A stretch of 64,000 bases of DNA from Candidatus Bathyarchaeota archaeon (GCA_963717465.1 OY970340.1:2560001-2624000); one strand, 5' to 3'; positions 1 through 21,105 are shown, counted from the stretch's first letter. Notes: generated by a model from the letters alone, not told the origin. Numbers and translations are program-made.

Positions 1-2052
1 TTACTTTTCCATCTTGGTTTAAATCGGCTTGGTAGTATACTGTTAAGTTGGAGAAATTTTGGAGTCCGTTGTATGTTGCTGTGACTGCCCAGTTTCCCAT
101 GTTATCGGAGGTGTAATTGCCACTTGTCCATGAGCCACCAGCTCCAGAAGTTATGCTCCACAAGCACGATGCAGTGGCATCCCAAGAATTGCCATAACTA
201 TCGATTGCAGTGGTTGTATAAATTTGGCCGCAACCGGCATTTATTGAGGCGGTATCTGGGCTGATGGTGATGCTTTGAGCTGTTGCATGGTTAACGCTTA
301 AAGAGGTTGTGGATAGTAAATTGTTTAAAATGCCTGTGATTGTCCAGTTCCTGCTTTAGCTGCAGTATATGTGTTGCCTGTCCAGTTGCCGCCAGCCTGA
401 GGGTCAATATTCCAAGCTGTTGAGGTGGTTACATCCCACGAATTACCATAAGGGTCGTAGGCAGTGGCGTTGAAAAGTTGGCTTTGACCGGCAGTAATTG
501 ATGAGTTTTGAGGAGATATAGCTATGTTAGAGGCTGATGCATGCATAACGTTAAGCTGTGCAGTGCCTGAGGTGTTGCCTAATGAAGCGGTGATAGCCCA
601 AACCCCGGCCATGGCCGAAGTATACACGTTTCCTGACCAAGATCCGCCAGCACCAGCACTTGTACTCCAAGAAGTTGAATTAGTCACATCCCATGTGTTC
701 CCGTAAATGTCTGAGGCAGTTGCTGTAAAAGATATTGAAGAACCAGCAGATATTGAAGTATTGTGTGAAGAAATTGTGACGCTGTAAACGTTAGCATAGC
801 TTACGGTTAAAGTGGTCGTTCCAATTATACCCGAATAATTACCAGTTACTGTCCAAATGCCAGCTTTCACACATGAGTAAACATTCCCGCTCCATGCACC
901 GCCAGCTGCTGATGTTATACTCCATGATGTTGAACCTGTGACATCCCAAGTATTCCCATAGAAGTCGGAAGCGGTAGCAGTAAACGTTACCTGAGAGCCT
1001 GCTGCAAAGGTTGGATTAGTTGGGGTAATGGTTAGGTAAGATGGGGTGGAATGTGTTACGGTTAAGGAAGCAGTATCAGAATACCCTAGATAAGTTCCTG
1101 TTACGATCCAAGTTCCCACTTTGGCTGAGGTGTAAACATTATTTGACCAAGAACCGCCAGCATTTGCATCTATTTGCCAGTTTGTCAAATTAGTAACATC
1201 CCAGATATTACCAAAAGAATCTTGAGCAGTTGCTGTGAAAGTTACCGAGTTCCCAGCTGATACAGATGGGGTTTTTGGACTTAATGTTATGCTGATAGCT
1301 GTTGACGGATTAACCGTTAAAGACGCTTGGGCAACAAACGTTCCCTCATACGTTCCCTCGTATATCGCTGTGTAAACTGCTGTAACTGTAAAGGTTCCAG
1401 CCTTTGCGGATGTGAAAGTTGAGCCGGACCAAGTGCCTCCTGAACCGTAACTAACAAACCATTGAGTTGAACTGGAAACATCCCATGAGTTGCCAAAGCT
1501 GTCATCCGCTGTAGCGGTGTACGTTTGCTTAGAGCCAGCAGTGATAGTCGCAGTTTTTGGAGAGATTTGAAGTTGAACAGGTGTGGATGGAGTAACAGTT
1601 ATTTGACTGGATGTCGCTGACATAGATCCATCGGTAACTGTGATATTTTGGGAGCCAGCTGTAACCAGATTGAAACCTGAAAACGTATGCACACCGTTGT
1701 CGCCTGAACTACCAGTTGTGAAGGTATAGGTGCTCGTGGAGACATAGGGTAAGGTTGCTTTTGGATCACTTGATGTGAAATAAACTTTACCTGTGTAGTT
1801 AGTCCAGACCTGCCCGCTAGCATAATAAACCGTAACGGTTATGTCACTGAAACTTTGGCCAGCAGTAACAGAAGTTGGGCAACCGGTTATTGTAAAGTGA
1901 TAAGTTGCAGTAGCTGCCATGACAGTAGCGCCTTGAGGCGCAATTAAAGATTCACCTACGTAAATGGTTGACAACAATATTAAGAATAATAGTACAATAA
2001 CTCGTATAACATTCCTCATGGCAAGCCCTCGCTTTGCTAAGCTTCTTCTCAC
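1..2052 (-). CDS. Secreted Ig-like repeat surface protein with C-terminal dockerin start (frameshifted near 348; runs off left edge)
   Basis: Signal peptide, N-terminal Ig-like domain and five ~85-aa repeats (I(S/T)PxxxxIxAGxxxxFTATAxDxYGNxWDVT...W...GGxWSGxxYTxxKxGxWxVT). Adding one base near 348 continues into a sixth repeat and ...NLTVYYQADLNQDGKV at position 1. Confidence 0.8.
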
Positions 2053-2069
2053 ATTCTCTCTCTTTTCAT

Positions 2070-2100
2070 GAAAGCGGTGACTTGGGTATTTACCGCTTTC
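2070..2100. promoter_or_regulatory. 9-bp inverted repeat in the leader of the Ig-repeat gene
   Basis: GAAAGCGGT-N13-ACCGCTTTC, 18-48 nt upstream of the GTG at 2052; function unknown. Confidence 0.3.
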
Positions 2101-2192
2101 CTACTTAGTATAAGGGGAGTCTAGTATGAGATTATGAGAAAAATAGTCACCACATAGAAATATAAAAAAATAAATAGACTATATTTGCCGAT

Positions 2193-2780
2193 TTAGCTAT
2201 ATTTCGATTGGGCAAATGCGACATATGCATGTACGTATATTTGAAGGTCTGTGAAGTCGATTTTTCCGTCGTTGTTCAGGTCGCAAGCTTGGGTGGCTGG
2301 AGTGAGCGCATGTATTTGGTTGTAGTTTATGTAGGCCTTAACAAAGTAAACTGTGTCTTGGAAGTTTACATTTCCGTCATGGTTAAAGTCCAAGTTGTAT
2401 AACGTTAAGCTGATTGTAGAACTGCTGGCTCCATTGTTTGTGTCACCGTTATAGTTGGCTGTTATTGTTACGTTGCCTGTTTGGGTATCATTGTAAGTGA
2501 CAGATGATTGCCCGGCAGTTACTTGTGTTGTTGTACTGTTGAATTCGCCTGTGGTACTATTTGTCGCCCATGTTATGGTGCCAGTAGGGTTTGTTCCGGT
2601 TATGGTGGCGGTTAAGGTAATTGTCGAATTGGCGTTAAGGTATAAGGGATTGCAGTAACACGAAATTTGGGTGCTACTTGCTGCTTGTTCAGTCGCTGCG
2701 GCGAAATGGTTTAATGAAATTACAGGGATACTTAAAAAAAGAAGCAAGAATATTGCCGTTGTAATTATTTTGTTTTTCAT
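2193..2780 (-). CDS. Secreted Ig-like domain protein with C-terminal dockerin-like module
   Basis: Signal peptide; Thr-rich Ig-like domain (VTITANYNGDTNN); duplicated EF-hand loops DFNHDGNVNFQD and DLNNDGKIDFTD, each followed by an amphipathic helix. Confidence 0.85.
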   Translation of the reverse strand: MKNKIITTAIFLLLFLSIPVISLNHFAAATEQAASSTQISCYCNPLYLNANSTITLTATITGTNPTGTITWATNSTTGEFNSTTTQVTAGQSSVTYNDTQTGNVTITANYNGDTNNGASSSTISLTLYNLDFNHDGNVNFQDTVYFVKAYINYNQIHALTPATQACDLNNDGKIDFTDLQIYVHAYVAFAQSKYS

Positions 2781-2944
2781 TTTATTTTTTCTCCGATGTA
2801 TGTCAAGAGTGTTGAATCAATATTTGATATTTGTCGCTATAGAAAAATGGTATCAAGTAGTTTCGCTTAAACGCTATTTAGATAATAGGTCTAAAAAGCT
2901 TAAAACTAAATAGCTTATATGACTGATTTTAAGACTATGATTCA

Positions 2945-4489
2945 TTAGGGATTGATTAGAAAATTTGCTGCTGACTCAGGCGATAATGGAGCGGAAGAGT
3001 TTGTGAGCAAACAAACATACGCCGTTGCTTCTCCTGGGAATGCCCATAACGGGATAGTGACGGCGGCATCTATAATGGTGAGGTTTCCGCCCAGTTGAGT
3101 TATCGGTATAGTTGAAGAGGCGATAGGTACACTTGCGTTGTCAAATATTGTGATACACAACCCGGTGAACGGCGCAATCATATCATCGTTGTTTATAGTA
3201 AGTTGTATGGACATTGTTTCGCCTACGTTAACACTAGTAGGGATGGTAATATTTTCGACTTCGCTAAGATAAGTAAAAGTGAAGCTTTCGGTATCGCTTA
3301 CGGGTGCTATTTGACCTAGAACTGTAGCTGATGCTGTTATGGACCAATTTCCAAACAAGTTTTCCGTTGGGTTAGGGTCAGGAAGTCTAAAGTTGGTATA
3401 TGCTATGCCTGTTCCATTTGTAACGTTGCTTACAGTAGATATAAGCGAGCCGTTCGGGCATTGTATACTAAAATCCACGAGGGCACCTGGCACGGAAACA
3501 TTCTGGTCAGTAGCCAACCCATAAATTTGAACAAGTTGCAAAGGTCCATACGTATCGGCATCAGTGAAAACTTGGAGATTGAATGATTGAACCACGTTTA
3601 TTATTGCACTCGCACTATCCGCGGTATCATTGGCGGTGATTATCAGTATTATACGAAAGGTGCCTTCAACCGAAGCGTTAAATGTTGTAATTTCGCCGGT
3701 TAAAGATGTAAATGTTGTTCCGTTGAGGTACTCGACACCCCATAAGTAGTCGGTTATGTTGAGGGTTTGATTATTTTCATATCCTGGCTGTGACGAGTTT
3801 GCATTTAATGTTACGGTTGAACCTATCAAGAAAATTGATCCGTCAGCTGGAGAGAACCTGGCTACTGGATTCTGGATTGATGAATTTTGCGAAGGAGACG
3901 ACGAAACAAAAATTGCGTTTGCGTAGGCAAATCCTGTGGATGTTCCAGTTGGATAGATATTTCCGATTGTCGGAGATACCAAATAGAACAATTGACCTGA
4001 GGGACTAATATCGAAAGTAATGTTGCTTTGACCACTGCCGATGACCTGGAAAATAATTTGCCCTAAGACCACGTCGTTATCTGGTTCAATAGTGGCAGAT
4101 GCATTAGCTGTATCCAAGATTGTTTGAGCAAAGTCATATTCTGAACTATTAACTGCAACATCAGTAGATACAAGGTGACTGCCCCAACATGAACCATCTG
4201 CAGTGGAAACAATATCAAGAACTGCAGGATTGTAAATTACGCCGTATGTTGCACCATCGATACCGCCTGAAACAAAACTCGCATTATCCAACCTCACATC
4301 AACAGTAAACTGCGAGCCAATCGCAGCCTGAGGTATATAGGATGTTACAGATGACCCAGCATCACCAGTTGGCACAATACTAAGCACAGGCGTTGTACCA
4401 CTCTCGTCAGCTTTGATTTGATAAGCAAAGAATATAGAGAAGCCTATGATCAGTAGCATGCCTAAGCAAATAACACATTTCCGTTTCAT
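2945..4489 (-). CDS. Secreted cohesin + PKD-like + shared C-terminal beta-sandwich module protein
   Basis: Signal peptide; cohesin pattern GSQFTVDVRL...YNPAVLDIVS...VLGQIIFQVIGSGQSNITF; PKD-like PVARF...VTLNANSS...ITDYLW; C-terminal IPLWAFPGEATAYV motif; no TM anchor. Confidence 0.8.
   Translation of the reverse strand: MKRKCVICLGMLLIIGFSIFFAYQIKADESGTTPVLSIVPTGDAGSSVTSYIPQAAIGSQFTVDVRLDNASFVSGGIDGATYGVIYNPAVLDIVSTADGSCWGSHLVSTDVAVNSSEYDFAQTILDTANASATIEPDNDVVLGQIIFQVIGSGQSNITFDISPSGQLFYLVSPTIGNIYPTGTSTGFAYANAIFVSSSPSQNSSIQNPVARFSPADGSIFLIGSTVTLNANSSQPGYENNQTLNITDYLWGVEYLNGTTFTSLTGEITTFNASVEGTFRIILIITANDTADSASAIINVVQSFNLQVFTDADTYGPLQLVQIYGLATDQNVSVPGALVDFSIQCPNGSLISTVSNVTNGTGIAYTNFRLPDPNPTENLFGNWSITASATVLGQIAPVSDTESFTFTYLSEVENITIPTSVNVGETMSIQLTINNDDMIAPFTGLCITIFDNASVPIASSTIPITQLGGNLTIIDAAVTIPLWAFPGEATAYVCLLTNSSAPLSPESAANFLINP
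3920..4411. repeat. Cohesin-coding DNA repeat, copy A
   Basis: Nearly identical to 5422-5913 (offset 1502), with long exact runs. Confidence 0.9.
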
Positions 4490-4653
4490 TTAGGGAACCC
4501 CCTCTGACGTTCTTTTTATTAAATTGGTTACCGATGCGTGGAGTGCGTGGCTTGCTGTTTTTGAGTGTAAGAAATTGATAAGCCTAACATCCCAAGTAAA
4601 AGTGTTGCCTAGGAATTCTTTTTTAGACATGTTTTGTCTTCCGTTTTGATATT

Positions 4654-5994
4654 TTAAGCTGTAATTTGGAAGTTTGCTGTTTGTTGTGGGCAAACAGGAA
4701 CGCCTCCAGTAAGGGGATTTTGTGTTAGGACGTTAACGTATATTGTTGCTGTTCCTGTAAAAGCCCATGTTGGAATGGATATCTGGGTTGTAAATGTATT
4801 TCCTGTTATGCAGTTGGAGTTTATCAGGACGGTGCTTATGGGGACGCTTGCATTGTCATATACGGTAATAGAGACAATCGACCAAGTTGAGTTTTCGAGG
4901 TTTGGTAGAGTTATACTGACAGACATTGTAGACCCTCTGGCAATGGTCGCTGGTAAGGTGATGCCGATTTGAGTGGTTACAACTGTATTATACGTGAAAT
5001 AGACTGTATCGCTTGCGACGACTTGAGCAACTTGCACTGAGGCAAGAACTGACCATATTCCAAAATTGTTAGTGCCGTTATCAGGTGTTCTATACGATTG
5101 ATATGCGATTCCTGATGAGTTTGTTAATGATGATGTGATGGATATAATTGTTCCATTCGGATCACAAACCGTGAATACAACCTGCTCGGGATTTGTTACG
5201 GGTTTACCGTTCTCTGTTACAAGAGCATACAATTGTATTAATTCACCTGGAACGAAGCCGGGGCTTGTCGCGTTGGGTCCTATTCCGCCTTTATTGGTAA
5301 ATACATCAATGGCGACAGATGGACTTGGCGAAGGAGACGGACTCGGAGAAGGAGAAGGGCTTGCAGATGGACTTGGCGAAGGAGACGGACTCGGAGAAGG
5401 AGAAGCGTTGTAAATTGCGTTTGCATAGATAAACCCTGAAGGTGCCCCAGTTGGATAGATGTTTCCAGTTGTCGGAGATGACAAATAGAACAATTGACCT
5501 GAGGGACTAATATCGAAAGTAATGTTGCTTTGACCACTGCCGATGACCTGGAAAATAATTTGCCCTAAGACCACGTCGTTATCTGGTTCAATAGTGGCAG
5601 ATGCATTAGCTGTATTCAGGATCGATTGAGCAAAGTCATATTCTGAACTATTAACTGCAACATCAGTAGATACAAGGTGACTGCCCCAACATGAACCGTC
5701 AGCAGTGGAAACAATATCAAGAACTGCAGGATTGTAAATTACGCCGTATGTTGCACCATCGATACCGCCTGAAACAAAACTCGCATTATCCAACCTCACA
5801 TCAACAGTAAACTGCGAGCCAATCGCAGCCTGAGGTATATAGGATGTTACAGATGACCCAGCATCACCAGTTGGCACAATACTAAGCACAGGCGTCGTGC
5901 CACTTTCGTCAGCCGCAATCAGATGAATAAAAGAGAACACAGAAAAAATTATAACTACTATTACAGCTAAAGCAAAGATGATTTTCCGTTTCAT
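4654..5994 (-). CDS. Secreted cohesin + Ser/Pro linker + shared C-terminal module protein
   Basis: Signal peptide; cohesin almost identical to that of 2945-4489; (SP)n linker; IDVFTNKGGIGPN...IPTWAFTGTATIYVN...GGVPVCPQ. Confidence 0.8.
   Translation of the reverse strand: MKRKIIFALAVIVVIIFSVFSFIHLIAADESGTTPVLSIVPTGDAGSSVTSYIPQAAIGSQFTVDVRLDNASFVSGGIDGATYGVIYNPAVLDIVSTADGSCWGSHLVSTDVAVNSSEYDFAQSILNTANASATIEPDNDVVLGQIIFQVIGSGQSNITFDISPSGQLFYLSSPTTGNIYPTGAPSGFIYANAIYNASPSPSPSPSPSPSASPSPSPSPSPSPSPSVAIDVFTNKGGIGPNATSPGFVPGELIQLYALVTENGKPVTNPEQVVFTVCDPNGTIISITSSLTNSSGIAYQSYRTPDNGTNNFGIWSVLASVQVAQVVASDTVYFTYNTVVTTQIGITLPATIARGSTMSVSITLPNLENSTWSIVSITVYDNASVPISTVLINSNCITGNTFTTQISIPTWAFTGTATIYVNVLTQNPLTGGVPVCPQQTANFQITA
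5316..5405. repeat. Tandem duplication encoding Ser/Pro linker
   Basis: 42-nt unit cagatggacttggcgaaggagacggactcggagaaggagaag at 5316-5357 and 5364-5405 (period 48). Confidence 0.9.
5422..5980. repeat. Cohesin/signal-peptide DNA repeat, copy B
   Basis: 5422-5913 matches copy A; 5764-5980 matches 6761-6977 (offset 997). Confidence 0.9.
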
Positions 5995-6257
5995 TCAAGA
6001 GTCTCCTGTTTGACAAAGGAGGCTTTGCCGAAGGTGAATTTTACCAGACATAACCAATTTATGGTATCTATTGGCAGATTGAAGCCTCTCCCTTTGGTTG
6101 GAGAGTAATTGGCTGTTAACTATTTTACCTTAGCCAAATAGAATATGTAGACAATATAGTTTAATTTTAAACTCGTTTTCATGTTGTTTCGTGGAGTAGC
6201 TAGTAAGCTATTTTTTGATAGGCAATAGTTTGAGTTTTAGGTTGTTTATTGATTTAG
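5995..6257 (-). repeat. Duplicated, diverged upstream region (paralogous to 6992-7233)
   Basis: Collinear shared blocks aagagtctcct, cagacataa, tattttaccttagcca-atagaatatgta, aatatagttta and gtttgagttttaggttg-ttattgattt. Confidence 0.8.
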
Positions 6258-6274
6258 CCCATCTTAAATTGAGT

Positions 6275-6991
6275 TTATTTTCTGCGATTTTTTTTACTTT
6301 TTTTGTTTTTAGTTAATACCAGTAAGATGGCTACGGCGATAATTATTGCTGGTATGGCAAAGAGGGCTATGGATTCTAAGAGGTTTGAAGATGATGCTCC
6401 TTTGGCATAAATTGCGCCTGCAGTGATTAATCCTTGAGCTGTACCTATGTCTTGACCTGATGGAGTAGCGATATAGAGCAAGTTGTTTCCGCTAAGATCA
6501 AAGAATATGTTGCTTTGACCAGTGCCAACAACTTGGAAAGTGATCTGGCCTAAGACTACCGCGTTATATGGCTCAATAGTGGCCGAAGCATTGGTTGTAT
6601 TCACGATTATTTGGTTGAAGCTAAAGCATGAATCATTATTTTGTGGGAAGACGTCAGCGAAAATGGCGCTGTCATTGCCGCCCCAGCATGCCCCATCTGA
6701 ACTGGAGACAAATTTTAGAACTGAAGGGTTCCAGGTAACAGCGTAAGTTGCGCCGCTGACACCGCCTGAAACAAAACTCGCATTATCCAATCTAATATCA
6801 ACAGTAAACTGCGAGCCAATCGCAGCCTGAGGTATATAGGATGTTACAGATGACCCAGCATCACCAGTTGGCACAATACTAAGCACAGGCGTCGTGCCAC
6901 TTTCGTCAGCCGCAATCAGATGAATAAAAGAGAACACAGAAAAAATTATAACCACTATTACAGCTAAAGCAAAGATGCTCTTGTGTCTCAT
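6275..6991 (-). CDS. Membrane-anchored single-cohesin protein
   Basis: Signal peptide, one cohesin (FTVDIRL...WNPSVLKFVS...LGQITFQVVGTGQSNI), C-terminal TM helix and basic tail KNKKSKKNRRK. Confidence 0.85.
   Translation of the reverse strand: MRHKSIFALAVIVVIIFSVFSFIHLIAADESGTTPVLSIVPTGDAGSSVTSYIPQAAIGSQFTVDIRLDNASFVSGGVSGATYAVTWNPSVLKFVSSSDGACWGGNDSAIFADVFPQNNDSCFSFNQIIVNTTNASATIEPYNAVVLGQITFQVVGTGQSNIFFDLSGNNLLYIATPSGQDIGTAQGLITAGAIYAKGASSSNLLESIALFAIPAIIIAVAILLVLTKNKKSKKNRRK
6761..6977. repeat. Signal peptide/cohesin N-terminal DNA repeat, copy C
   Basis: Near-identical to 5764-5980. Confidence 0.9.
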
Positions 6992-7238
6992 CTAAGAGTC
7001 TCCTTTTTAACTAAAAGGTCAAAGGCGAATTTCATCAGACATAATCTAGCGACAGAATTTTTTGGCATATTCAGTCCTCTCCCCTTTGGGAAAAGATGGA
7101 TCGTTAAATTATTTTACCTTAGCCATATAGAATATGTAAAAAATATAGTTTATTTTGGCTGTATTTTTGCTTGTGATTAGCAAGTTATTGTTTGATAGGC
7201 TATGGTTTGAGTTTTAGGTTGCTTATTGATTTGGCGAT

Positions 7239-8396
7239 TTAAAAAAAGTTAATTTTTGGGGTTTTTCTTTTTTTATTTAACATTATCGCTATGGCTATGA
7301 CAATAATTATTGCTGCTGCGATTGGCAAAATTATGAATTCTATGAGGTTTGAAGAGTTGCCTTTTGTTGTGTCGGGTGTGTCAGTTGGCGATGCTGTTGT
7401 TGTTGGTGATGGCGTTGGTGTTGGCGTAGATAGTTGATTTGTTCTGCCGACTACAAGTGAAGTCCCATTCAAGGCTGCTGCTGGAATATTTCCTGTAACT
7501 GTATCTGGCGAAGTAAACATAGTAGCGACTAATACCCAGTTGATCCCATTCCAGTACTCAATCTGGCTGAGGCTGTTGAATGCTTGGTTTGTTATGCTGA
7601 CTTTTGCGTTGACATTTGAGCTCAAGGCTCCGCTGCTGGAGGTAACAGTTACATCGTAAAAGACTGCGTCGTTAAGGGATACGGGGTTTGTACCCGATGG
7701 CTGAGTGCTTTCATAGTTGGTTGAGGTAACAGTGACTTGCGCGCCATTGGGAAGTGTAGATAAGGAACCGGTGATTGTAACGCTGACACCTGTTGTTGCC
7801 GATTCGTCTACAATTGCCGAATTATTGCTGACCGGTATTGTTTCAGTAGTGGTGGTTGCTACTGTTATGGTTGCGTTGACTGCCGTGCTTGGCATGGCTT
7901 GTGTGTCGATGGTGTTGTAAATGTTTGTTTGACCGAACGTTATTTGTGATGTTCCTATTTGGAGTACGGTGAATGTTAGTGTTAACAGAACGCCGCTGCC
8001 ACTTACGCCTGCTTCTGCGTATGTTCCGTTAGGCAGTTCGTATTGTGCATCTGCTACTTCTGAAATGTATCCTTGGTAAATAGTTTGGTAGGAGGGGACT
8101 GGAGCAGAGACGAATATAGTTTTTCCTGCTTGTTGGAGGAACGGACCTTCAGTAACACTTGTCAGGTTGAGCATTGATGGATTGAATGTTATATTTTCTA
8201 GGTCCCATGACCAAAGGTCTTGAACGTTGTTTATTGTAATGTTAGCTTGTATGCTGTTCCCTATGTTTGCGTTGATATTTTGTGTGTTGGAGTCAACTGT
8301 TATTGTGGGTGTTGTGGTTGCTTGGGTAATGTTGATTGTGTAAGCGCTTGTTAGTATGAGTACAACTAAAAACAAGGCTACTATAAATTTTTTCAT
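7239..8396 (-). CDS. Membrane-anchored cohesin protein (second cohesin class) with extra beta domain and Thr/Pro linker
   Basis: IQANITINNVQDLWSW...FNPSMLNLTSVTEGPFL...GSGVLLTLTFTVLQIGTSQITF; PT-rich linker; C-terminal TM and basic tail. Confidence 0.85.
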   Translation of the reverse strand: MKKFIVALFLVVLILTSAYTINITQATTTPTITVDSNTQNINANIGNSIQANITINNVQDLWSWDLENITFNPSMLNLTSVTEGPFLQQAGKTIFVSAPVPSYQTIYQGYISEVADAQYELPNGTYAEAGVSGSGVLLTLTFTVLQIGTSQITFGQTNIYNTIDTQAMPSTAVNATITVATTTTETIPVSNNSAIVDESATTGVSVTITGSLSTLPNGAQVTVTSTNYESTQPSGTNPVSLNDAVFYDVTVTSSSGALSSNVNAKVSITNQAFNSLSQIEYWNGINWVLVATMFTSPDTVTGNIPAAALNGTSLVVGRTNQLSTPTPTPSPTTTASPTDTPDTTKGNSSNLIEFIILPIAAAIIIVIAIAIMLNKKRKTPKINFF

Positions 8397-8528: not shown

Positions 8529-9824
8529 TTATTTTTTTCTTAGCCAGAAAGTTGATCCGCCTACCGCTAGGATGGTAACGATTATTATTATTCCTAGGTC
8601 CAGTGGTGCCAGATCAATGTTGGATGTCGAATCTGAACTGTATCCAGTTGATGAAGAGGGAACGTAAATGTTGTAGGTTGTGGTATCTGTGAGGTTTTCA
8701 GGATCAACGACTGTTAAGGTTACGTTGTAGTGACCGCCTGTGGAGAATGTATATGTTCCGTTTATGCCGCTGAAGGACTTCTGGGCATATTCAGACCCAA
8801 GGCTATCAAGATTTGTAATAGTCCATAGGTATTGTGTTATGGTTATGTTGTTTGTTTCACTACTTTGTGAGCCGTCTAAGGTCACTGTTTGGTTTAATTG
8901 GATAGTTTCTCCCTGAGTTATTCCTGTGATGACGGCGTTGGGTGTGGAGGTGTTTTGAACTATTATAGTTATGTTAGCGGTGCTGATGCCGTTTGAATCG
9001 GTGACGGTTAATGTAACGTTGTATATGCCTATCGTGTTGAAGGTCCAGGTTACCGTTTTGTTATTGCCTATCATTGTTTGTGATGTCCCATTGTTAAATG
9101 TCCATGTGTAATTGGCGTTGGGGTCTGCTGAAAATGATTGTGTGCCGTTTAATGTGACTGGGGTTCCGGCGGTTACTGTTTGTGAGGGTCCGGCGTTTGC
9201 TGTTGGCTTTCCGCAGTTGCATGAGACTACTGCATTTGTAAAAGTAAATCCTGTTGGATTGCTGTCAGAAAGGGGGTATATGTTTGTTGGCAGATAACTG
9301 GTCGGGGATGATAAATAGAACAGGATGTTTCCGCTATTGTCGAAAGCTATGTTGCTTTGTCCACCGCCAATAACTTGGAAGGTGATTTGTCCTAAGACTA
9401 CCGCGTTGTCTGGTTCAATTGTGGCTAATGGATTGGCTGTATCCATGATTGATTGGGCGAAATCGAATTCTGAATTATTAAGTGCAACATCGGTAAATGC
9501 ACTTTTGCTCCCCCAGCATGCACCATCTGCGGTGGAAACCATTTCAAGAATTGCAGGATTCCAGGTGATTCCGTAAGTTGCGCCACTGATGCCTGCTGTG
9601 ATGCTTTGGGCATTGTCAAGTCGGATGTCTACTGTGAACTGGGAGCCAATAGTATTTTCTTGAAAGTTGTTGTTGTTTGTTGTTCCTGAAAGAACGATGC
9701 TTAATGTTGGTGTTTGCTGTGTTTGGGCTTTTGTTATATTTGTTGTAGAGATTAGAATTAAGGTTAGGGTTAAGAGTGTTAGTAGTAGGATGATTGGGGT
9801 TTCTTTCTTTTTGTTTTTTTTCAT
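8529..9824 (-). CDS. Membrane-anchored cohesin + two PKD domain protein
   Basis: Cohesin related to copies A-C; PKD motifs PTANAGPSQTV...YTWTF...GIYNVTLTVTD and VTLDGSQS...GHYNVTLTVVD; C-terminal TM and RKK. Confidence 0.85.
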   Translation of the reverse strand: MKKNKKKETPIILLLTLLTLTLILISTTNITKAQTQQTPTLSIVLSGTTNNNNFQENTIGSQFTVDIRLDNAQSITAGISGATYGITWNPAILEMVSTADGACWGSKSAFTDVALNNSEFDFAQSIMDTANPLATIEPDNAVVLGQITFQVIGGGQSNIAFDNSGNILFYLSSPTSYLPTNIYPLSDSNPTGFTFTNAVVSCNCGKPTANAGPSQTVTAGTPVTLNGTQSFSADPNANYTWTFNNGTSQTMIGNNKTVTWTFNTIGIYNVTLTVTDSNGISTANITIIVQNTSTPNAVITGITQGETIQLNQTVTLDGSQSSETNNITITQYLWTITNLDSLGSEYAQKSFSGINGTYTFSTGGHYNVTLTVVDPENLTDTTTYNIYVPSSSTGYSSDSTSNIDLAPLDLGIIIIVTILAVGGSTFWLRKK

Positions 9825-11284: not shown

Positions 11285-11305
11285 GGGTTGGTTGTTTTGT
11301 TTTGT

Positions 11306-13589: not shown

Positions 13590-15161
13590 TTATTGTCCCA
13601 CTACCAAGGGGTTTACGTAGAGTGGGTTGTAGACTATGTAGTAATTCACGTAGGTTTTCACGAATCCTTGTAGGTCTGCAAAGTTTACTTTGCCGTCAGC
13701 GTTAAAGTCACAGTATGGGTTGTATGCTCCTTTAGTGTAGTATGCGATATAGTTGGCTACGAAGTATTGAAGGTCAGCAAAGTTCACTTTACCGTCAGGA
13801 ATAGCCTGAGTCTGAGTTGACAGAAGACCCTGAGATGGACCATAGGTGTTCAAGTTGGAGTCAATCGGTAGTTGACCTGCCATGTCACAGCGATCCAGCG
13901 GGATATAGCCTTGATCAGCAACAAAGTTGCTTGCACCTGAACCAACTGCAGTTGCCGTAGGATTTGCACCTCCAGTTGTCGTGTTATCAGCCATCATGTA
14001 AGCTATCCAAACACCGGTCACTAAGCTTTGAGGATTGCTTGTAACTGGTACATTTGGAAGGTCTTCCCATAGCCATCTCCATGCAAAGTACGGATCAGTT
14101 GCAGCGTAGCCTTTAATGCCTGAGTAAGCCCAGATAACGTTTGCTTGACTGCATACAGTGTAAGGACTCCAAACGGGTGCTACTGTCCATTGACCAACTG
14201 TGCCAGACGGCCCGTAATAGTGTATCATAGTGCTTCCAGAGCTTCCGTCGCTACCACTTCCGGTTGGCTGTTGAGTGTTGAAGGCAATGTTTGCTGGAAT
14301 AACTTGACCATAGGTTTGTAAGTAGCCTAAGGATAAGAAGCCTACAGAGCCTGAAGTAGTGTCAACTGCTTGCCATTCTTGATAGTTTGTCTGTTCATAA
14401 GTGTAAGTTGCCATGTTTTCTGAACCATCAGCAGTTCCACTTGTCTTGTGAACAAAGGTAAAGCCGTTTGGTGAGGCAAAGTATGTGTTGAAGCAGTCCA
14501 TAGTTCCACTGGTTGGGTCTCTAACTATGCGGGTGATTGGCTCAGTTAATTCAGCTGATGTCAAGCCTGCGGTTGAGATGCTTTGGTTAGTCAAGAAGTC
14601 ACCCCATGTATTGAAGTAACCTGGAGCAACGTTGCCCTGACCGCCTATGGTTGTATTACTCTGGACATTGTTTGCGAATGGTGTAGTGTCTGAGAAGAGC
14701 AAAGCAATTTGGTAAGTAGTGAAATTCGTTGGGAGCCAAGACATGTCTGGACTAAAAATCGGAACAACACTGTCAACACCGACAGCATAGATTTGCAAGT
14801 TGATCAGAGCAGAATTTTTCCACTCGGCAGAACTGCTTGCTGGAGGCTTTGACATTTCGCCAATATCTGCTGTTCCAGCGGCTAGTGCCGGCATGGCAGT
14901 TCCACTACCCTGCTGGGCTATGTTTATTGTACTAATGGCATAACCACCAGTAACAGATGAGCTCAAACTGGCCCAATAACTGCCAAAGCTGTTTGATTCT
15001 TCAACTGCAATTGGTCCAACTGTGCTTGAACCAACTATCGTCAGCGTATTTGCTTGGTATAAATTGCCACTTGTTGATGCGTTAGCCATTGCGCTTGCTA
15101 CAGAAAATGCTAAGATTGCTACCACTAATGTAGATAAAATTATTTTTTGGTTTAAATTCAA
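13590..15161 (-). CDS. pstS: Phosphate ABC transporter substrate-binding protein fused to a C-terminal dockerin-like module
   Basis: PstS motifs LTIVGSSTVGP, QGSGTA, ADIGEMSKP, VGVDSVV, RDPTSGT, VGFLSLGY; C-terminal DGKVNFADLQ twice. Likely start is TTG 15161 after an AGGAG SD (ORF track extends to 15212). Divergent from pstC. Confidence 0.85.
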   Translation of the reverse strand: MNLNQKIILSTLVVAILAFSVASAMANASTSGNLYQANTLTIVGSSTVGPIAVEESNSFGSYWASLSSSVTGGYAISTINIAQQGSGTAMPALAAGTADIGEMSKPPASSSAEWKNSALINLQIYAVGVDSVVPIFSPDMSWLPTNFTTYQIALLFSDTTPFANNVQSNTTIGGQGNVAPGYFNTWGDFLTNQSISTAGLTSAELTEPITRIVRDPTSGTMDCFNTYFASPNGFTFVHKTSGTADGSENMATYTYEQTNYQEWQAVDTTSGSVGFLSLGYLQTYGQVIPANIAFNTQQPTGSGSDGSSGSTMIHYYGPSGTVGQWTVAPVWSPYTVCSQANVIWAYSGIKGYAATDPYFAWRWLWEDLPNVPVTSNPQSLVTGVWIAYMMADNTTTGGANPTATAVGSGASNFVADQGYIPLDRCDMAGQLPIDSNLNTYGPSQGLLSTQTQAIPDGKVNFADLQYFVANYIAYYTKGAYNPYCDFNADGKVNFADLQGFVKTYVNYYIVYNPLYVNPLVVGQ

Positions 15162-15269
15162 TTTTAAACTTCTCCTTTCTCTCTTTAAACAATTGAACGA
15201 TTGCTCGTTCAAGCATCAATTAAAGGCAAAAAGAATATCTTTCTTGCCGACGTAGTTTATATTTAACAA

Positions 15270-15329
15270 TTTAGACTATAGTCTAAAAAAGTAACAACTA
15301 GAAAACAAGTAATCCCTAATTAGACTATA
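15270..15329. promoter_or_regulatory. Perfect 18-bp palindrome plus repeated half-site in the pstS/pstC divergent promoter
   Basis: TTTAGACTATAGTCTAAA at 15270-15287; TTAGACTATA repeated at 15320-15329. Confidence 0.6.
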
Positions 15330-15408
15330 AATAATAAATAGATAAACAATATCTGTCCATTTTCAGTCTTTTCAACTATATGAGGAGACTAGGGAAGCAG
15401 AATTATTA

Positions 15409-16284
15409 ATGGACTATAAAAGATTAAGAGAAAATCTAATCAGACACGGCTTATTTATCTGCGCTGTTTCTTCAATCGTAATAGTGTTCACCATCGTAGC
15501 CCTCATTTTGAATTACGGATACCCAGATTTTTCCCAATGGTTTGCCACCGGGTTCTATGCGTCAAGCTGGAATTCATACATTTGGCCCTTCATATGGGGT
15601 TCATTATACGTCTCCTTAGGAGGGACAGCCTTGGGCCTTGTAATAGGTATACCTTGCGCAATTTACATGGCGGAATTTGCAAATATACGCGTAAGAAACA
15701 TTTTGAAGCCATCTTTGGAGGTTTTAAACGGCTTCCCTTCAATCATAATAGGAATCATAGGCCTTACTCTTCTAGTAGACCAACCAGAGCTACCTCACCA
15801 ACTTCAAGGTCAAGGAACCATCCTTTTCGCATGGATAATTCTGGGAATAATGGCAATACCATTAATCGCCAGCCTCGCAGAGGATGCTATAAGATCTGTT
15901 CCTTATGAACTAAAAGAAGCCTCCCTTGGATTAGGCGCCACACGCTGGCAAACAGTAACAAACGTTTTGGTGCCTGACGCAATGTCCGGCATTTTAACGG
16001 CAACTTTGTTAGCATTTGGCAGTGGAATAGGCGAAACCATTGCCGTCTATTACGTTGTCGGACAACAAACAGGTAGCGCTCCAGCCTTTCTTTTTAATCC
16101 AATAACACGAAGCAACACGCTCACCGTTTTAATGTATATGAGCAAAGGAGACCAGGGGTTAGTGCCAGGAAACCCGGGAACAAATCTAGTTTTTGCAATA
16201 GCCATTATAGTATTAATCATAACAGCCGCAATAAACATTATCATAAGAAGGTTATCTTCCCGTAATAAAAAATCAGGCGGATAA
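15409..16284 (+). CDS. pstC: Phosphate ABC transporter permease PstC
   Basis: AIYMAEFA, LKPSLEVLNGFPSIIIG and EAA loop EDAIRSVPYELKEASLGLGATRWQT. Confidence 0.9.
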   Translation: MDYKRLRENLIRHGLFICAVSSIVIVFTIVALILNYGYPDFSQWFATGFYASSWNSYIWPFIWGSLYVSLGGTALGLVIGIPCAIYMAEFANIRVRNILKPSLEVLNGFPSIIIGIIGLTLLVDQPELPHQLQGQGTILFAWIILGIMAIPLIASLAEDAIRSVPYELKEASLGLGATRWQTVTNVLVPDAMSGILTATLLAFGSGIGETIAVYYVVGQQTGSAPAFLFNPITRSNTLTVLMYMSKGDQGLVPGNPGTNLVFAIAIIVLIITAAINIIIRRLSSRNKKSGG

Positions 16285-16311: not shown

Positions 16312-17673
16312 TTGAAACTACAACTTAGAAAAACGATAACAAGTACAATCAAATACTTCAAAAAAAAGGAAAGAGCAAGCTTGCTATCGGGGAGCCTTCT
16401 ATTTATTTCGGGCGTTATCGCTATAGTCCCAGGAATACTCCACCTTTACAGCAATGTCCTAACTCAACCCATAAGCCTAATACAATTTGACACATCGGTT
16501 ACCGAAACAGCAATCTCATTGCTCTTAATACTTCCAAGTCTAGTTCTTTTTTGCATAGCATACATGCTTTGGGAAAATCATTCCTTAGGCTGGAAACTAT
16601 CTACAGGAACCGCTGTGCTGACTGCAGTATTAGCCTTTGCCGGGTATGTGCCTCTTGAATTTGCACTATCAATATCAGCCCTAAGTGCTATTGCAGCAAT
16701 AATTGAATTTCGAAATAAGAATAAAATGAAAGATTCACCGATTGTAATTGAAAAGTTGGCAATGTTCGGACTTAAACTTTCTGGGCTCTTCTGCATGGTT
16801 CTCTTAGTAGGGATAATTTTTTATATAGTCATCCGAGGTTCACCTGTTTTATCCGTCGAGTTCGTAACTGGCAGCAATTGGGTTTGGAGCAATGGCTTTG
16901 AATTCGTGGCAGGTACGACAAGTTTAGGAGGAGGAATAAGAGACTCTATAATTGGCACATTTCTGTTTGTTGCTGTAAGCGAAGTCATAGCTATTCCACT
17001 GGGCGTTGGAGCAGCCATTTACCTATCTGAGTACTCCAAACAAAATAGGATCGTTAATGTTATTCGTTTTTTCATTGAGATACTTGCAGGGGTGCCCTCC
17101 ATAATTATTGGATTGGTTGGGGTCGTCATCTTCGCAACGGAATTAAAATGGGCTTATACTTTGCTTGGAGGCGGAATAGCATTAGCAATGATGATTTTGC
17201 CATTTAACATTCGAGTTACGGAAGAAGCCTTGAAGTCAGTCCCGTCATCTTTCAGAGAAGCCTCTTTTGCCCTTGGAGCGACACAATGGCAAACCGTAAG
17301 AAGGGCAGTGCTTTTCGCAGCGTTACCAGGAATAATAACGGGTATTTTGCTAGGAGTAGGAGGAGTCATGGGAGAAACAATGATTTTAGTGCTTATCGGC
17401 TCTGAAACAAGTGCAAACTTCGTAGGCGCAGCAACTTCGATATCGTATTTGGCAAACATCGAAAGATTTTTCTTATCGCCATGTCCAGCCCTAACCATAT
17501 TTATAAACAACGTCTATAACGTAAGCACCAATACTCGACTTACCAACCAAACATTTCAGTTGGGGTCCTTGGCTTTTGCTGGCGCAACCGTCCTAATCGC
17601 GTTATATCTAGCCATCTGCATTATTGCAATGGTAGCAAGAAACTACTTAAACAAGAAAATAAAAGGGCAATAA
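16312..17673 (+). CDS. pstA: Phosphate ABC transporter permease PstA with N-terminal membrane extension
   Basis: PLGVGAAIYLSEY, LAGVPSIIIG, TEEALKSVPSSFREASFALGATQWQT; about four extra N-terminal hydrophobic segments. Confidence 0.9.
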   Translation: MKLQLRKTITSTIKYFKKKERASLLSGSLLFISGVIAIVPGILHLYSNVLTQPISLIQFDTSVTETAISLLLILPSLVLFCIAYMLWENHSLGWKLSTGTAVLTAVLAFAGYVPLEFALSISALSAIAAIIEFRNKNKMKDSPIVIEKLAMFGLKLSGLFCMVLLVGIIFYIVIRGSPVLSVEFVTGSNWVWSNGFEFVAGTTSLGGGIRDSIIGTFLFVAVSEVIAIPLGVGAAIYLSEYSKQNRIVNVIRFFIEILAGVPSIIIGLVGVVIFATELKWAYTLLGGGIALAMMILPFNIRVTEEALKSVPSSFREASFALGATQWQTVRRAVLFAALPGIITGILLGVGGVMGETMILVLIGSETSANFVGAATSISYLANIERFFLSPCPALTIFINNVYNVSTNTRLTNQTFQLGSLAFAGATVLIALYLAICIIAMVARNYLNKKIKGQ

Positions 17674-17693: not shown

Positions 17694-19070
17694 ATGAAAA
17701 AACTGTCAACAAACAAAAAAATTCTCAACATCCTATTAATTCTACTTCTCAGCCCATTCTTAACTCAAATAGTCCAAACAACTCACGCCCAAACCATAAA
17801 CCAAAACAATTGGGCAATAACTTTACAAGCCCAAAAAGCTGGACAAAACTCACCCAGCAACGTATTTGCCCCTTTTGACCAAATTCAACTGACCACAAAT
17901 GTGACATACAACAATGCCCCGCAACCAGACGTTTTAGTAACCTTCCAAGTCCAAGGTCCCTTTGGCTCGATTGATTTAATTAATATTACAAGAATCCAAA
18001 TGACAGACTCAAACGGCCAAGCAGGATTCTCATTCCGTTTACCAGACGAAAGCGAAAACCAATCCTTACTTGCAGGCACCTGGCAAGCCTCTGCTACAAT
18101 ACAAACAACCAACAATACATTGCAGCAAACCACAACGTTTACCACTCAATGGCCCATGCAAATAACATCAATGAACATTGCGACGGCACAGGGCCAAACA
18201 GTCTTTGCTCCAGGCAGTCCAGTCACAGTCCAACTGGCAATTAACAACACAGGGCAAGCCCAACCCGTAAACATAACACTCACTATGCAAGATGCAACAG
18301 GAAACATACTAGACCAAACCGAACTTCAAAATACTCAAATCGAAGACCAAACCAGTCTAACCCAAGTTCAAGGCACCATACAAATTCCAGACAACATAAC
18401 TTCAGGCGAAATAGCAGTTAACGCAGCGATATACTACGGAAACTATCAAAACACAGACATACCAATAGCTGCAAGCCAAACCGCCTACTTTGCAATCGGT
18501 GGCAGCGTAACCACACCAACTACAACTTCAACTCAAAACGCCATAAGCCTTTTCTCATGGCTTCTCATTTTCACAGGACTCGCCACATTCACGGCACTAA
18601 CACTTTTTCTTAGAAGAAAACATCTACCTAAAATAGGCGCAAAAACACCGTCTCCCATGCCGAGCTCAATCATAATAACTCCGTCAATAGGAGCAACCTT
18701 AGAGCAACCTTTGCAAACAACACCCGAAGGAGCCAAAACTAGTGAACCAGCATCGATACTAAGTCCGCTCCAGCAAGCTCTAAGATCCCAAGTACAGACT
18801 CAATTAAACCAAATCTCAGAAAGCGCAAACAGAATCCAAGCCTTGAAAGAAGAACTTGATTTAGAGAAAGAGAATTTATCCAAAGACTTGAGCCTACTCA
18901 GAAAAACAGTTGAAGAACAGCAAAAAATAGTAAAGAGCTACTTCGACGAAGTAACCTCAGAAATTGAAAAAATGGAAGACATCTTAAAAGATAAAGAAGA
19001 AAAAACAAAGAACAAAAATAAGACTAATTCAAACGGAAAAAGAAGTGAAACAAACAGCAATAATAAATGA
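17694..19070 (+). CDS. Single-pass membrane protein: extracellular shared module, TM helix, cytoplasmic coiled coil
   Basis: Signal peptide; GQNSPSNVFAPFDQIQL...TDSNGQAGFSFRLP...GTWQASA resembles the C-terminal module of the cohesin proteins; TM at ~aa 285-306; Glu/Lys/Gln-rich heptad tail. Confidence 0.75.
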   Translation: MKKLSTNKKILNILLILLLSPFLTQIVQTTHAQTINQNNWAITLQAQKAGQNSPSNVFAPFDQIQLTTNVTYNNAPQPDVLVTFQVQGPFGSIDLINITRIQMTDSNGQAGFSFRLPDESENQSLLAGTWQASATIQTTNNTLQQTTTFTTQWPMQITSMNIATAQGQTVFAPGSPVTVQLAINNTGQAQPVNITLTMQDATGNILDQTELQNTQIEDQTSLTQVQGTIQIPDNITSGEIAVNAAIYYGNYQNTDIPIAASQTAYFAIGGSVTTPTTTSTQNAISLFSWLLIFTGLATFTALTLFLRRKHLPKIGAKTPSPMPSSIIITPSIGATLEQPLQTTPEGAKTSEPASILSPLQQALRSQVQTQLNQISESANRIQALKEELDLEKENLSKDLSLLRKTVEEQQKIVKSYFDEVTSEIEKMEDILKDKEEKTKNKNKTNSNGKRSETNSNNK

Positions 19071-19250
19071 ATTCCCTTATAAAACTGATTTTGCAGTCAA
19101 CGCAATTAATTCAGATGCATTTTCGGCCAATAAGGGATAGCAACAAACAAGGAATATTGAATTCTTCTATATAGATTATGTGAAATATTATGGAAAAGAT
19201 AATCAGCAGACGCCAAAAACATCATTTGAACATTCAAGGGAGGGGAGAAG

Positions 19251-19829
19251 GTGAAAGAAACCCACGAAGGAAAATCCCACAAGAAATTACTTGCAATAAT
19301 TTTAGCGCTTGCAATTGTTACAATCACAATTATAAGCCTAATCGTTGTAATCCTCGCTGAACCAAAGTTAGCAACAGACGTACAATATCTATCTCCAACA
19401 AGTTATCCAGTGGGATCAACTGTAAGTACTGTGCTGGTTGTTTATGACCCGGGAGCGGACAATTCAGGAAAAAGCGTAGCGAGCCAAATAGCAAGTAACC
19501 TTCAGGCTCAAGGATACTATGTTGACTTGGCAGGCATCGACAGCTCAGTGGCAAAAGGCAACCTCGCCCAATTTACAGTCATAGTAGTTGGAGGCCCATT
19601 AGATAACAACGGGATGGCATCAAGTAAAGTCCAATCATACCTAAGAACCTTGGCTCCAGCAAATGGAACGAAAGTAGGCGTTTTTGGAGTTGGCAATTAC
19701 ATAGTGTTTAACAACAAGATAGCACCATTACCAGGCGGCAGCACTTTAGCAATTAAAGAAATACACGAGATAGATTTAAGCCAAGATACTACCCAAAGCG
19801 CTGAATTTATTACTCAACTGCTCAGCTAA
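19251..19829 (+). CDS. Membrane-anchored flavodoxin-like fold protein
   Basis: N-terminal TM; VLVVYDPG...GKSVASQIASNLQAQGYYVDL...VIVVGGP pattern. Confidence 0.6.
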   Translation: MKETHEGKSHKKLLAIILALAIVTITIISLIVVILAEPKLATDVQYLSPTSYPVGSTVSTVLVVYDPGADNSGKSVASQIASNLQAQGYYVDLAGIDSSVAKGNLAQFTVIVVGGPLDNNGMASSKVQSYLRTLAPANGTKVGVFGVGNYIVFNNKIAPLPGGSTLAIKEIHEIDLSQDTTQSAEFITQLLS

Positions 19830-20049
19830 TAAGTGCAAAAAATATTTTAACACCGAAAAGTTACCCATAGGGTTACAGGCGATAACAGGTTTGGCATCAA
19901 GGCATTGATACCTCCAAGTTCCTATCTGAAGAGTAAGAACCTTCATCTAAAACGTGTTCTACCATATCGCAATAGTATATATAACTTAACGTAAACTATA
20001 TAGAGAACATATTTATCAACGGCGAACCTTCGAGATAAACCAAAACTAA

Positions 20050-21105
20050 ATGGTATTTATATTGCAGCCCTCAAAAGTAAGCGAAGAATTAAGGAAGATT
20101 CAATTCACCGGCGGGTCAACATACATCATTTCATTACCAAAAAGATGGATAGAACAGAATCAACTGCAGCGAGGAAGCATGATCCGCCTAAGAGAAGAAG
20201 ACGGCGGCACCTTATCAATCGAACCTAACAGTGCAAGAATTCAAGATGAACAAAATGAAGCTTTTATCAAAATATCAGCTAAAGATTCCTCAGATCTAAT
20301 CATTCGAAAAATAATTTCCGCCTATCTAGTGGGCTTTAGCATAATTCATTTAAAAGCTGAAAGTCAAAAGCAAATTTCGTCAAAACAAAGATATGAAATT
20401 AAGAATTTTTCAAGACGCATGCTAGTTGGAACAGAAATTGTAACTGATACAGCTCAAGAGCTTACTATGCAAGTGCTCCTAAGTTATCCAGAACTCTCCG
20501 TTCAAAGCGCCTTGAATCGAATGAGTATAATAACAGCATCCATGCACAGAGATGCCATGACTGCGCTTAAATGTCTTGATTATCAGCAAGCCAAAGAAGT
20601 AATAATAACCGATAATGAAGTTGACCGATTCAGTCTCTACGTTGTAAGACAGCTTAAGACCGCAATTCAAAACCCAAGAATCATAAAAGAAATAGGTTTA
20701 CAAAACGCAAGAGACTGCTTAGGATACCGTTTAGTAGTTAAATCAGTTGAAAGAGCAGCAGACCACGCATCAAACATTGCAGAAAACATTCTAGCTTTGC
20801 AAAAGCCTCCAGAAAAAGACCTAGCTGAAAAACTTGAAAAAATGAGTACCATTGCAATTTCAATGTTTGAAACGGCCATAGAAGCACTATTCAGACAGGA
20901 TTACAACCTCGCAGAAAGCATCATTGAAAAAATCAAAGACGTTGAAAACATAGAACGTGACGCAGTTATTTTATCACATAAAATAGAAAGTGAACAATTA
21001 GTCTATCTTAGGCTGGCAATCGAAAGCATCCGCAGAACAGCCGAATATGCAAGCGACATCGCCGAATTTGTCCTAAACCTAACAATTAAATCAATTCTAA
21101 ATTAA
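20050..21105 (+). CDS. phoU: Archaeal phosphate uptake regulator (AbrB-type DNA-binding domain + PhoU repeats)
   Basis: RKIQFTGGSTYIISLPKRW; DNEVDR, ERAADHASNIA and RRTAEYASDIAE motifs. Confidence 0.92.
   Translation: MVFILQPSKVSEELRKIQFTGGSTYIISLPKRWIEQNQLQRGSMIRLREEDGGTLSIEPNSARIQDEQNEAFIKISAKDSSDLIIRKIISAYLVGFSIIHLKAESQKQISSKQRYEIKNFSRRMLVGTEIVTDTAQELTMQVLLSYPELSVQSALNRMSIITASMHRDAMTALKCLDYQQAKEVIITDNEVDRFSLYVVRQLKTAIQNPRIIKEIGLQNARDCLGYRLVVKSVERAADHASNIAENILALQKPPEKDLAEKLEKMSTIAISMFETAIEALFRQDYNLAESIIEKIKDVENIERDAVILSHKIESEQLVYLRLAIESIRRTAEYASDIAEFVLNLTIKSILN

Follow-up and report, generated by a model that had tools for sequence, protein, structure and literature searches.

What do cellulosome-type modules do beside the phosphate uptake genes of an archaeon? 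The role of cohesins and dockerins outside cellulose degradation, above all in archaea, has been an open question since Archaeoglobus. The same question is raised by a locus of a Candidatus Bathyarchaeota archaeon (GCA_963717465.1, sequence OY970340.1), which we analyzed as a window of 64,000 nucleotides corresponding to genome positions 2560001-2624000 on one 3.05-Mb contig. The best model of its Rfam clan was the archaeal small-subunit rRNA model (1474.8 bits, full length), so the host genome is archaeal. At this locus, the gene for a predicted phosphate-binding protein, PstS, ends in a dockerin, heads a run of genes for secreted cohesin and dockerin proteins, and stands divergent to pstC and pstA. 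We consider it reasonably probable that cohesin-dockerin pairing would tether PstS at the cell surface, and that in this genome the arrangement has been expanded with cargo built of immunoglobulin (Ig)-like and MG-like domains.

The protein at the head of the run, gene J, is a PstS-type phosphate-binding protein as judged from its sequence. PBP_like_2 matched J at 30.9 bits (cut-off, 27), and a profile of the J family matched the solved phosphate-binding proteins 4pqj, 4omb, and 4jwo with E-values of 3.6e-7 to 3e-6. The family profile was needed for this, as a search with the single J sequence against solved structures gave no match. Homologs of J are named phosphate ABC binding proteins by several sources. 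Residues D116 and R231-x3-S235-G236-T237 are invariant or nearly so in the family, with a spacing that we take to be that of the phosphate ligands of Escherichia coli PstS. The start of J is probably the TTG codon at window position 15161, because GGAGA lies just upstream and the homolog alignments begin at J residue 18; the full open reading frame (ORF) reaches 15212. The initial annotation had ended the gene set at 15161, in agreement with this start.

The dockerin is a constant part of the J family. It was present in 76 of 77 homologs (E-value of 1e-3 or less) and lay within 20 residues of the C terminus in 74; in two homologs, cohesins followed it. The nearest homolog, an identical fragment aside, was 49% identical to J. 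In some relatives, PstS, the dockerin, and two cohesins were fused into one polypeptide (L014 10007-12520 and L052 2512-5388; proteins P0064 and P0073). Neither of the two canonical PstS paralogs in this genome carries a dockerin, and both have a long hydrophobic segment at the N terminus. This fits the idea that the dockerin replaces or supplements a membrane anchor on J.

The neighborhood of J is conserved as well. Related loci numbered 43, from two metagenome-assembled genomes (MAGs) labelled Candidatus Bathyarchaeota, one genome of the same family, and 40 metagenome contigs. The two MAG loci came from a search with the single protein, and the 40 contigs came from an alignment query against metagenomes. 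Loci were informative for the downstream side when they had at least 400 bp after PstS or carried a fusion (34 loci) and for the upstream side when they had at least 400 bp there (35 loci). A cohesin gene came directly after PstS-dockerin on the same strand, with gaps of mostly 6 to 67 bp, or was fused to it in 32 of the 34 loci. Of the two exceptions, L015 has a fragmented PstS whose next ORF is its own dockerin piece, followed by a cohesin gene, and the L055 contig ends 567 bp after PstS. Divergent pstC was found in 32 of the 35 loci. Thus, the linkage to pst on which the initial annotation had relied is conserved among the relatives.

Two layouts were recognized. In the minimal one (L018, L019, L029, L033, L040, and L043-L048), PstS-dockerin is followed by an adaptor with one or two cohesins and a dockerin and by a cohesin with a transmembrane (TM) anchor, and phoU and pstB lie past pstA. 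The expanded one (L015, L022, L025, L028, L030, L032, L034, L036/L049, L037, L039, and L057) resembles the window gene for gene, with a scaffoldin of two cohesins and MG-like domains, an Ig-dockerin protein, two TM-anchored cohesins, two cohesin-MG proteins, and more dockerin proteins; orf458 and orf192 come after pstA. The features of the locus, at window positions 1-21105, are as follows; for positions 21106-64000, the analysis comprised an ORF list.

1..2052, minus strand: gene A (ORF 325-2052), with a signal peptide, about seven Big/Ig-like repeats, and a C-terminal dockerin; a 1-nt frameshift lies near 345.
2193..2780, minus strand: gene B, with a signal peptide, a Big_3_5 Ig domain (39.4 bits), and a dockerin (Pfam match at 2238-2390).
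2945..4489, minus strand: gene C, with a signal peptide, a Coh1 cohesin (4022-4330), an Ig-like region, and C-terminal MG2/CARDB-like domains; unanchored.
4654..5994, minus strand: gene D, with a signal peptide and a Coh1 cohesin (5521-5832) that a Pro-Ser linker connects to MG2/CARDB-like domains; unanchored.
6275..6991, minus strand: gene E, with a signal peptide, a Coh1 cohesin (6515-6829), a C-terminal TM helix, and a basic tail.
7239..8396, minus strand: gene F, with a signal peptide, a 'short anchor'-clade cohesin (7860-8279), a stalk rich in Thr and Pro, and a TM anchor at the C terminus.
8529..9824, minus strand: gene G, with a signal peptide, a Coh1 cohesin (9456-9650), two PKD domains (PKD_4, 73.8 bits), and a C-terminal TM anchor.
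9832..10911, minus strand: gene H, with a signal peptide, tandem Ig/MG-like beta-sandwiches, and a dockerin (9856-10014).
11306..13546, minus strand: gene I, scaffoldin-like, with a signal peptide, a Coh1 cohesin (I.1, 13028-13360), a second cohesin (I.2, 12503-12832), an Ig-like region, and MG2/CARDB-like domains; without anchor or dockerin.
13590..15212, minus strand: gene J, PstS-type phosphate-binding protein ending in a dockerin (13653-13796).
15213..15408, no strand: divergent control region, with half-sites TAGTCTA/TAGACTA beside TATA-like boxes.
15409..16284, plus strand: pstC permease (BPD_transp_1, E-value of 1.8e-24); orthologs adjoin PstS-dockerin in relatives.
16312..17673, plus strand: pstA permease (BPD_transp_1, E-value of 2e-22), 453 amino acids with about four extra N-terminal TM helices.
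17694..19070, plus strand: orf458, with a signal peptide, an ectodomain of MG2/CARDB-like type, a TM helix at residues 284-302, and a charged tail on the cytoplasmic side.
19251..19829, plus strand: orf192, a small protein with an N-terminal TM helix; kept after orf458 in relatives.
20050..21105, plus strand: PhoU-family protein (PhoU, E-value of 6.1e-23, in two stretches), with an N-terminal AbrB/MazE-type DNA-binding domain; orthologs in relatives.

The initial annotation had counted nine co-oriented genes for secreted proteins, and this number was corrected: ten co-oriented ORFs, A to J, occupy window positions 1-15212 on the minus strand, each opening with a hydrophobic signal-like segment. 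Its placement of PstS-dockerin back to back with pstC and pstA, with phoU nearby, was borne out by the PBP_like_2, BPD_transp_1, and PhoU matches. On sequence reading, E, F, and G (starting at 6275, 7239, and 8529) end in a hydrophobic stretch with a basic tail, and C, D, and I (2945, 4654, and 11306) do not, so its division into three TM-anchored and three unanchored cohesin proteins stands. In C, D, E, G, and I, the first approximately 200 codons, comprising the signal peptide and Coh1, are near-identical (87% between C and D over 195 residues). In D, a long Ser-Pro dipeptide linker (residues ~205-235, window 5250-5340) joins the cohesin to the MG2-like domain.

Seven cohesin-like domains in six proteins had been annotated, and the same set was recovered with Pfam. 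A six-frame search of the whole genome with Cohesin PF00963 (curated cut-off, 24.1 bits), which is more sensitive than hmmscan of single proteins, gave eight matches, seven of them at the locus, in C, D, E, F, G, and I (two). Four of the seven exceeded the cut-off: I.1 (29.1 bits), F (27.9 bits), D (25.4 bits), and C (24.8 bits). The domains that scored lower share 45% to 87% identity with these. In hmmscan of the single proteins, C, D, and E scored 21.7, 21.7, and 20.8 bits, all below the cut-off, and F, G, and I gave no match at an E-value of 0.01 or less. Hidden Markov models (HMMs) derived from the locus, run on the six genome frames, found eight cohesins (seven at the locus) and exactly four dockerins (all at the locus).

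Structure modeling of cohesins covered the Coh1 type only. The E cohesin, modeled with AlphaFold2 (AF2) from 35 aligned sequences, reached a predicted local distance difference test score (pLDDT) of 81.9 and a predicted template modeling score (pTM) of 0.80. Its best Foldseek matches were all solved cohesins (E-value of ~1e-8; TMq of 0.6 to 0.74), and the cohesin 2xdh of Archaeoglobus fulgidus was among the matches (E-value of 1e-7). In the model, the E domain adopts the cohesin fold, a flattened beta-sandwich jelly-roll.

The cohesins belong to several clades. Pairwise identity among C, D, E, G, and I.1 was 45% to 87% over approximately 200 residues, and in a tree of 122 cohesin domains these five were nearest each other and monophyletic against all relatives (support, 1.0). 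Sequence comparison thus marks the five Coh1 copies as a recent expansion or homogenization within this genome. F and I.2 fell in other clades of the tree. The first cohesin of the gene after PstS grouped with the five Coh1 domains of the window in one clade (n = 30; support, 0.997). The G-type anchor in other genomes bears a cohesin of a different clade, and the G cohesin therefore seems to have been replaced here. Relatives of Coh1 are few: only 54 were found at an E-value of 1e-3 or less among 1.84 billion representatives.

One further cohesin lies outside the locus, at genome positions 1183394-1184116 (L013 5394-6119, plus strand). It is a protein of 241 amino acids with a signal peptide, a cohesin, and a TM anchor, and its Pfam cohesin score is the highest in the genome (48.8 bits). 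It adjoins a 315-amino-acid protein that combines a signal peptide and a TM helix with a C-terminal region resembling a winged-helix regulator. A secreted neighbor of 325 amino acids ends in a stretch resembling half a dockerin loop.

Of the four dockerin-like modules annotated initially, three were found by Pfam and the fourth by the locus HMM. In the six-frame genome search, Dockerin_1 PF00404 (cut-off, 22.9 bits) gave three matches, each of which lies at the locus and exceeds the cut-off: H (39.3 bits), B (33.6 bits), and J (23.2 bits). In hmmscan, H and B scored 35.4 and 32 bits. The gene A dockerin was unreported by Pfam and scored 86.7 bits with the locus dockerin HMM (genome 2559843-2560355). 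It lies mostly outside the window, starting at window position 2-25 with the remainder just upstream (L012 14840-15163), and the reading frame of gene A extends into it only across the frameshift. A, B, and H each have two canonical calcium-binding loops (D-x-N-x-D-G-x-x-x-x-x-D). The first loop reads Q-x-I-P-D-G for D-x-N-x-D-G in J and the whole PstS family, and the second is canonical; the most divergent PstS subgroup (P0070-P0077) has two degenerate loops. Over 53 residues, the J and H dockerins share 66% identity. A helix pattern rich in aromatic residues, 'YFV..YI.YY', is common to the dockerins of PstS and of H-like and Big-like proteins, and 13 adaptor dockerins of relatives form a separate, canonical-looking class. 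At the level of these alignments, the two dockerin classes would be the signature of two specificities in a hierarchy. A predicted complex of the E cohesin, the J dockerin, and two calcium ions scored 0.13 and 0.06 (mark, 0.32), which counts neither way on binding.

The AF2 model of H (pLDDT, 80.9) consists of a string of beta-sandwiches followed by two C-terminal helices, and this helix pair gives the expected dockerin shape. Thus, the initial assignment of cohesin and dockerin folds was upheld by the profile matches, the solved cohesins matching the E model, and the two terminal helices of H. Foldseek of the whole H model returned generic multi-Ig/MG matches only (adhesin repeats, RbmA, and the MG domains of alpha-2-macroglobulin/C3), with TMq of 0.29 or less and no enzyme fold among them. 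For the N-terminal part of H, the best score in a protein atlas was 0.86, and its matches are leads only (SlaA-like and CARDB).

The two divergent operons share a control region. Half-sites TAGTCTA/TAGACTA occur at window positions 15272, 15279, and 15321, which is three in 57 bp, beside TATA-like boxes, and one pair (within 15272-15327) forms the 14-bp palindrome TAGACTATAGTCTA. There are 218 half-sites in the 3.05-Mb genome, and this region is the sole cluster of at least three per 200 bp. Among 31 distinct related intergenic regions, at least one half-site was found in 21 and at least two in 11, often approximately 80 nt from pstC (background, 0.036 per 200 bp). A 16-bp palindrome considered as the control motif was rejected: it occurs in none of the 31 regions and nowhere in the window, and the conserved unit is the 7-bp half-site within ...TAGTCTAATTAG... 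The cluster is a candidate operator for both divergent operons, perhaps of the PhoU-AbrB protein, although part of the half-site signal may be simply promoter. The shared region and its genome-unique cluster fit co-regulation of the two operons.

How the parts might work together can be outlined. The dockerin of secreted PstS would plug into a Coh1-type cohesin, located either on E or G, which are themselves anchored, or on scaffoldin I with its two cohesins. Since E and G carry the same Coh1 type as I, PstS could be held directly by the membrane anchors, or several copies of it could be carried by I, C, and D. One or several tethered PstS molecules would stay near PstCA at the membrane. The non-enzymatic Ig/MG-like dockerin proteins H, B, and A would fill further cohesins (C, D, F, and I.2), forming a surface layer that surrounds the transporter. 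The PhoU-AbrB protein would control both operons via the TAGTCTA-type sites. A two-step hierarchy is suggested by the minimal form in relatives, by analogy with the adaptor and anchoring scaffoldins of cellulosomes. C, D, and I end in MG2/CARDB-like domains related to the ectodomain of orf458, whose cytoplasmic tail of approximately 150 residues is highly charged and has a coiled-coil look. This gene is kept after pstA in expanded clusters, and its product could act at the membrane as the partner of the cohesin proteins that lack an anchor. Overall, the initial picture of a modular scaffold displaying a phosphate-binding protein and Ig-repeat proteins is supported at the level of sequence analysis; phosphate limitation may induce it, as was also proposed. 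Further amendments are needed: gene A and the pstB gene of the locus are frameshifted, and archaeal cohesin-dockerin in itself is not rare in the class.

Several observations weigh against the tethering of PstS. Among the modules themselves, three of the seven cohesins, E (21.8 bits), G (20.1 bits), and I.2 (19.9 bits), fell under the cut-off in the six-frame search, and the J dockerin reached 18.9 bits in hmmscan, under the 22.9-bit cut-off. The first loop of the PstS dockerin lacks two canonical calcium ligands, and Q467 and P472 are invariant. J bears an N-terminal hydrophobic segment; if this remains uncleaved, the dockerin would be superfluous as an anchor. C, D, and I have neither an anchor nor a dockerin to hold them on the cell. 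As to the comparison, ORFs of the relatives were annotated by the window proteins and iterated window-seeded HMMs, with TM helices assigned by a hydropathy rule, and the related loci are not independent, as L036 has the same gene layout as L049 and many contigs belong to common name series. The cassette is also patchy: only 2 of 301 sampled class genomes and none of 14 other genomes of the genus yielded a J homolog (E-value of 1e-20 or less). Within the cluster, one base missing near window position 345 splits the Big-repeat part of gene A from its dockerin. The pstB gene of the locus, which occupies the far end of the cluster just outside the window (genome 2558071-2558809), is split by an extra base at genome ~2558277 (L012 ~13264-13280) into two frames of 290.6 and 85.6 bits with the PstB model TIGR00972 (cut-off, 343.2 bits). 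Finally, a complete canonical pst operon, with an intact pstB (381.6 bits) at 3019320-3020063, and the two ordinary PstS paralogs lie elsewhere, at genome positions 3019320-3023104 and 72717-73559.

A more elaborate version of the same idea is possible, and we put it forward tentatively. In it, the locus would encode a hierarchical, cellulosome-like machine for nutrient capture, in which multi-cohesin scaffoldins gather PstS and Ig-like spacers as a phosphate antenna above PstCA, switched on by a dedicated PhoU-AbrB regulator via a locus-specific operator.

We regard it as unlikely that the locus serves a general surface-layer, adhesion, or biofilm-matrix assembly of Ig/MG-like proteins in which PstS is a mere passenger and the purpose is other than phosphate uptake. 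Cohesin and dockerin were each found in 61 of 301 genomes sampled from the class (E-value of 1e-4 or less) and in 25 and 27 of 48 genomes of the same family, so the modules are common in this lineage, and they are widespread on many other proteins. Within the locus, three of the four dockerin proteins are non-enzymatic and Ig/MG-like, the H model resembles adhesin repeats, RbmA, and alpha-2-macroglobulin MG domains, and MG2/CARDB-like domains are common to C, D, I, and orf458. However, PstS is the sole cargo in the minimal clusters of relatives, every dockerin of this genome adjoins pst genes, and the order pstA-pstC/PstS-dockerin-cohesin is kept in 32/34 and 32/35 loci.

The two indels raise another explanation, namely, that the cassette in this genome is a decaying remnant, possibly acquired, with phosphate uptake left to the canonical pst operon at 3.02 Mb. 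They lie within approximately 2.5 kb of each other at the distal end of the cluster, neither inside a homopolymer run, and could be real decay or assembly errors. Together with the complete second operon and its pstB above the cut-off, they mean that the cassette could be decaying here, and the lack of a homolog in the 14 other genomes of the genus points in the same direction. Nevertheless, 9 of the 10 surface genes are intact, as are pstC, pstA, and phoU; the Coh1 copies, mutually closest in the tree, indicate recent expansion rather than decay; and single-base indels may be errors of assembly. Among sequencing runs, no RNA run was listed, and two DNA runs labelled peat metagenome contained only 0.06 to 0.07 of the words. 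On balance, decay seems rather improbable.

We also give a low probability to a dockerin-like tail on PstS that binds no cohesin and acts instead as a calcium-binding, stabilizing, or PstCA-contacting module, with the cohesins serving other dockerin proteins only. The first loop, degenerate across the whole PstS family, and the loss of both loops in P0070-P0077 would be explained in this way. It is harder to reconcile with the 66% identity of the tail to the H dockerin and with a cohesin lying next or fused in 32 of the 34 loci, among them minimal clusters in which the tail is the sole 'Y-type' dockerin. A cellulosome-like polysaccharide-degrading complex is hardly credible and was rejected as an identity, for although cohesins, dockerins, and a two-cohesin scaffoldin-like protein are present and orf458 has a weak CBM_4_9 match (20.3 bits, under the 25.9-bit cut-off), the Pfam scan of 18 proteins found no glycoside hydrolase, in keeping with the initial annotation, nor any lyase, esterase, or strong carbohydrate-binding module (CBM) family, the H model shows beta-sandwiches only, and the four dockerins of the genome are all on PstS or Ig-like proteins.

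The proposed tethering of PstS has partial precedents. In the non-cellulosomal cohesin and dockerin of Archaeoglobus fulgidus, the cohesin fold (2xdh) is the same as here, and the host is likewise an archaeon that does not degrade cellulose. To our knowledge, no biological role or transporter context is known for that pair. Among the structure matches were modules of cellulosomal adaptor and anchoring scaffoldins (Acetivibrio cellulolyticus ScaA/ScaB; 3ghp, 3l8q, and 4u3s). As in cellulosomes, there are two dockerin classes and several cohesin clades, and the minimal adaptor and cell-anchored cohesin of relatives form a hierarchical layout. Unlike in cellulosomes, the cargo is a transport binding protein and Ig-like proteins rather than enzymes, a CBM is absent, a C-terminal TM helix takes the place of SLH domains or sortase as the anchor, and the dockerin helices are unusually aromatic-rich. 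Binding proteins in cells without an outer membrane are held by a lipid anchor, an N- or C-terminal TM helix, or fusion to the permease. The need is common to both, as the binding protein must be kept beside the permease, but the link proposed here would be non-covalent and modular, with several binding proteins per scaffold.

The closest precedent is that of the anaerobic methanotrophic (ANME) archaea, for which the part of the account of Chadwick et al. (2022, PMC9012536) used here describes dockerins as common features of NikA/OppA-type and TroA-type binding proteins of ABC transporters, along with some proteins that have one dockerin and up to five cohesins. Binding has been demonstrated for archaeal cohesin-dockerin pairs (Bayer 1999, Haimovitz 2008, and Peer 2009, as cited in PMC9012536). 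As far as that part of the account extends, the ANME systems, like this cassette, are archaeal and non-cellulolytic, with dockerins on substrate-binding proteins and multi-cohesin, scaffoldin-like proteins. They differ in that the dockerin-bearing binding proteins are of the NikA/OppA and TroA types, whereas here it is PstS and the lineage is of the Bathyarchaeota type; a conserved operon of adaptor and TM-anchored cohesins beside permease genes is found here, and that part of the account describes none. Literature searches returned no paper on PstS-dockerin or on cohesins of Bathyarchaeia; the supplements of PMC9012536 (S4 Data, ANME list), which lay outside their scope, might list a PstS. 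The locus is of a known kind, a non-cellulosomal cohesin-dockerin system with a dockerin-tagged binding protein, here with PstS as the probable cargo in a conserved pst cassette.

For the wider question of what cohesins and dockerins do outside cellulose degradation, the cassette is a small, conserved, and directly testable case, with a phosphate-binding cargo, an adaptor, and a membrane anchor, all beside the permease. It would give cellulosome-type modules a role apart from cellulose breakdown that can be tested. If the tethering of PstS is true, it would be a third, modular and multivalent way to hold a binding protein on a cell without an outer membrane, and the locus would provide new orthogonal cohesin-dockerin pairs with unusual aromatic-rich dockerins.

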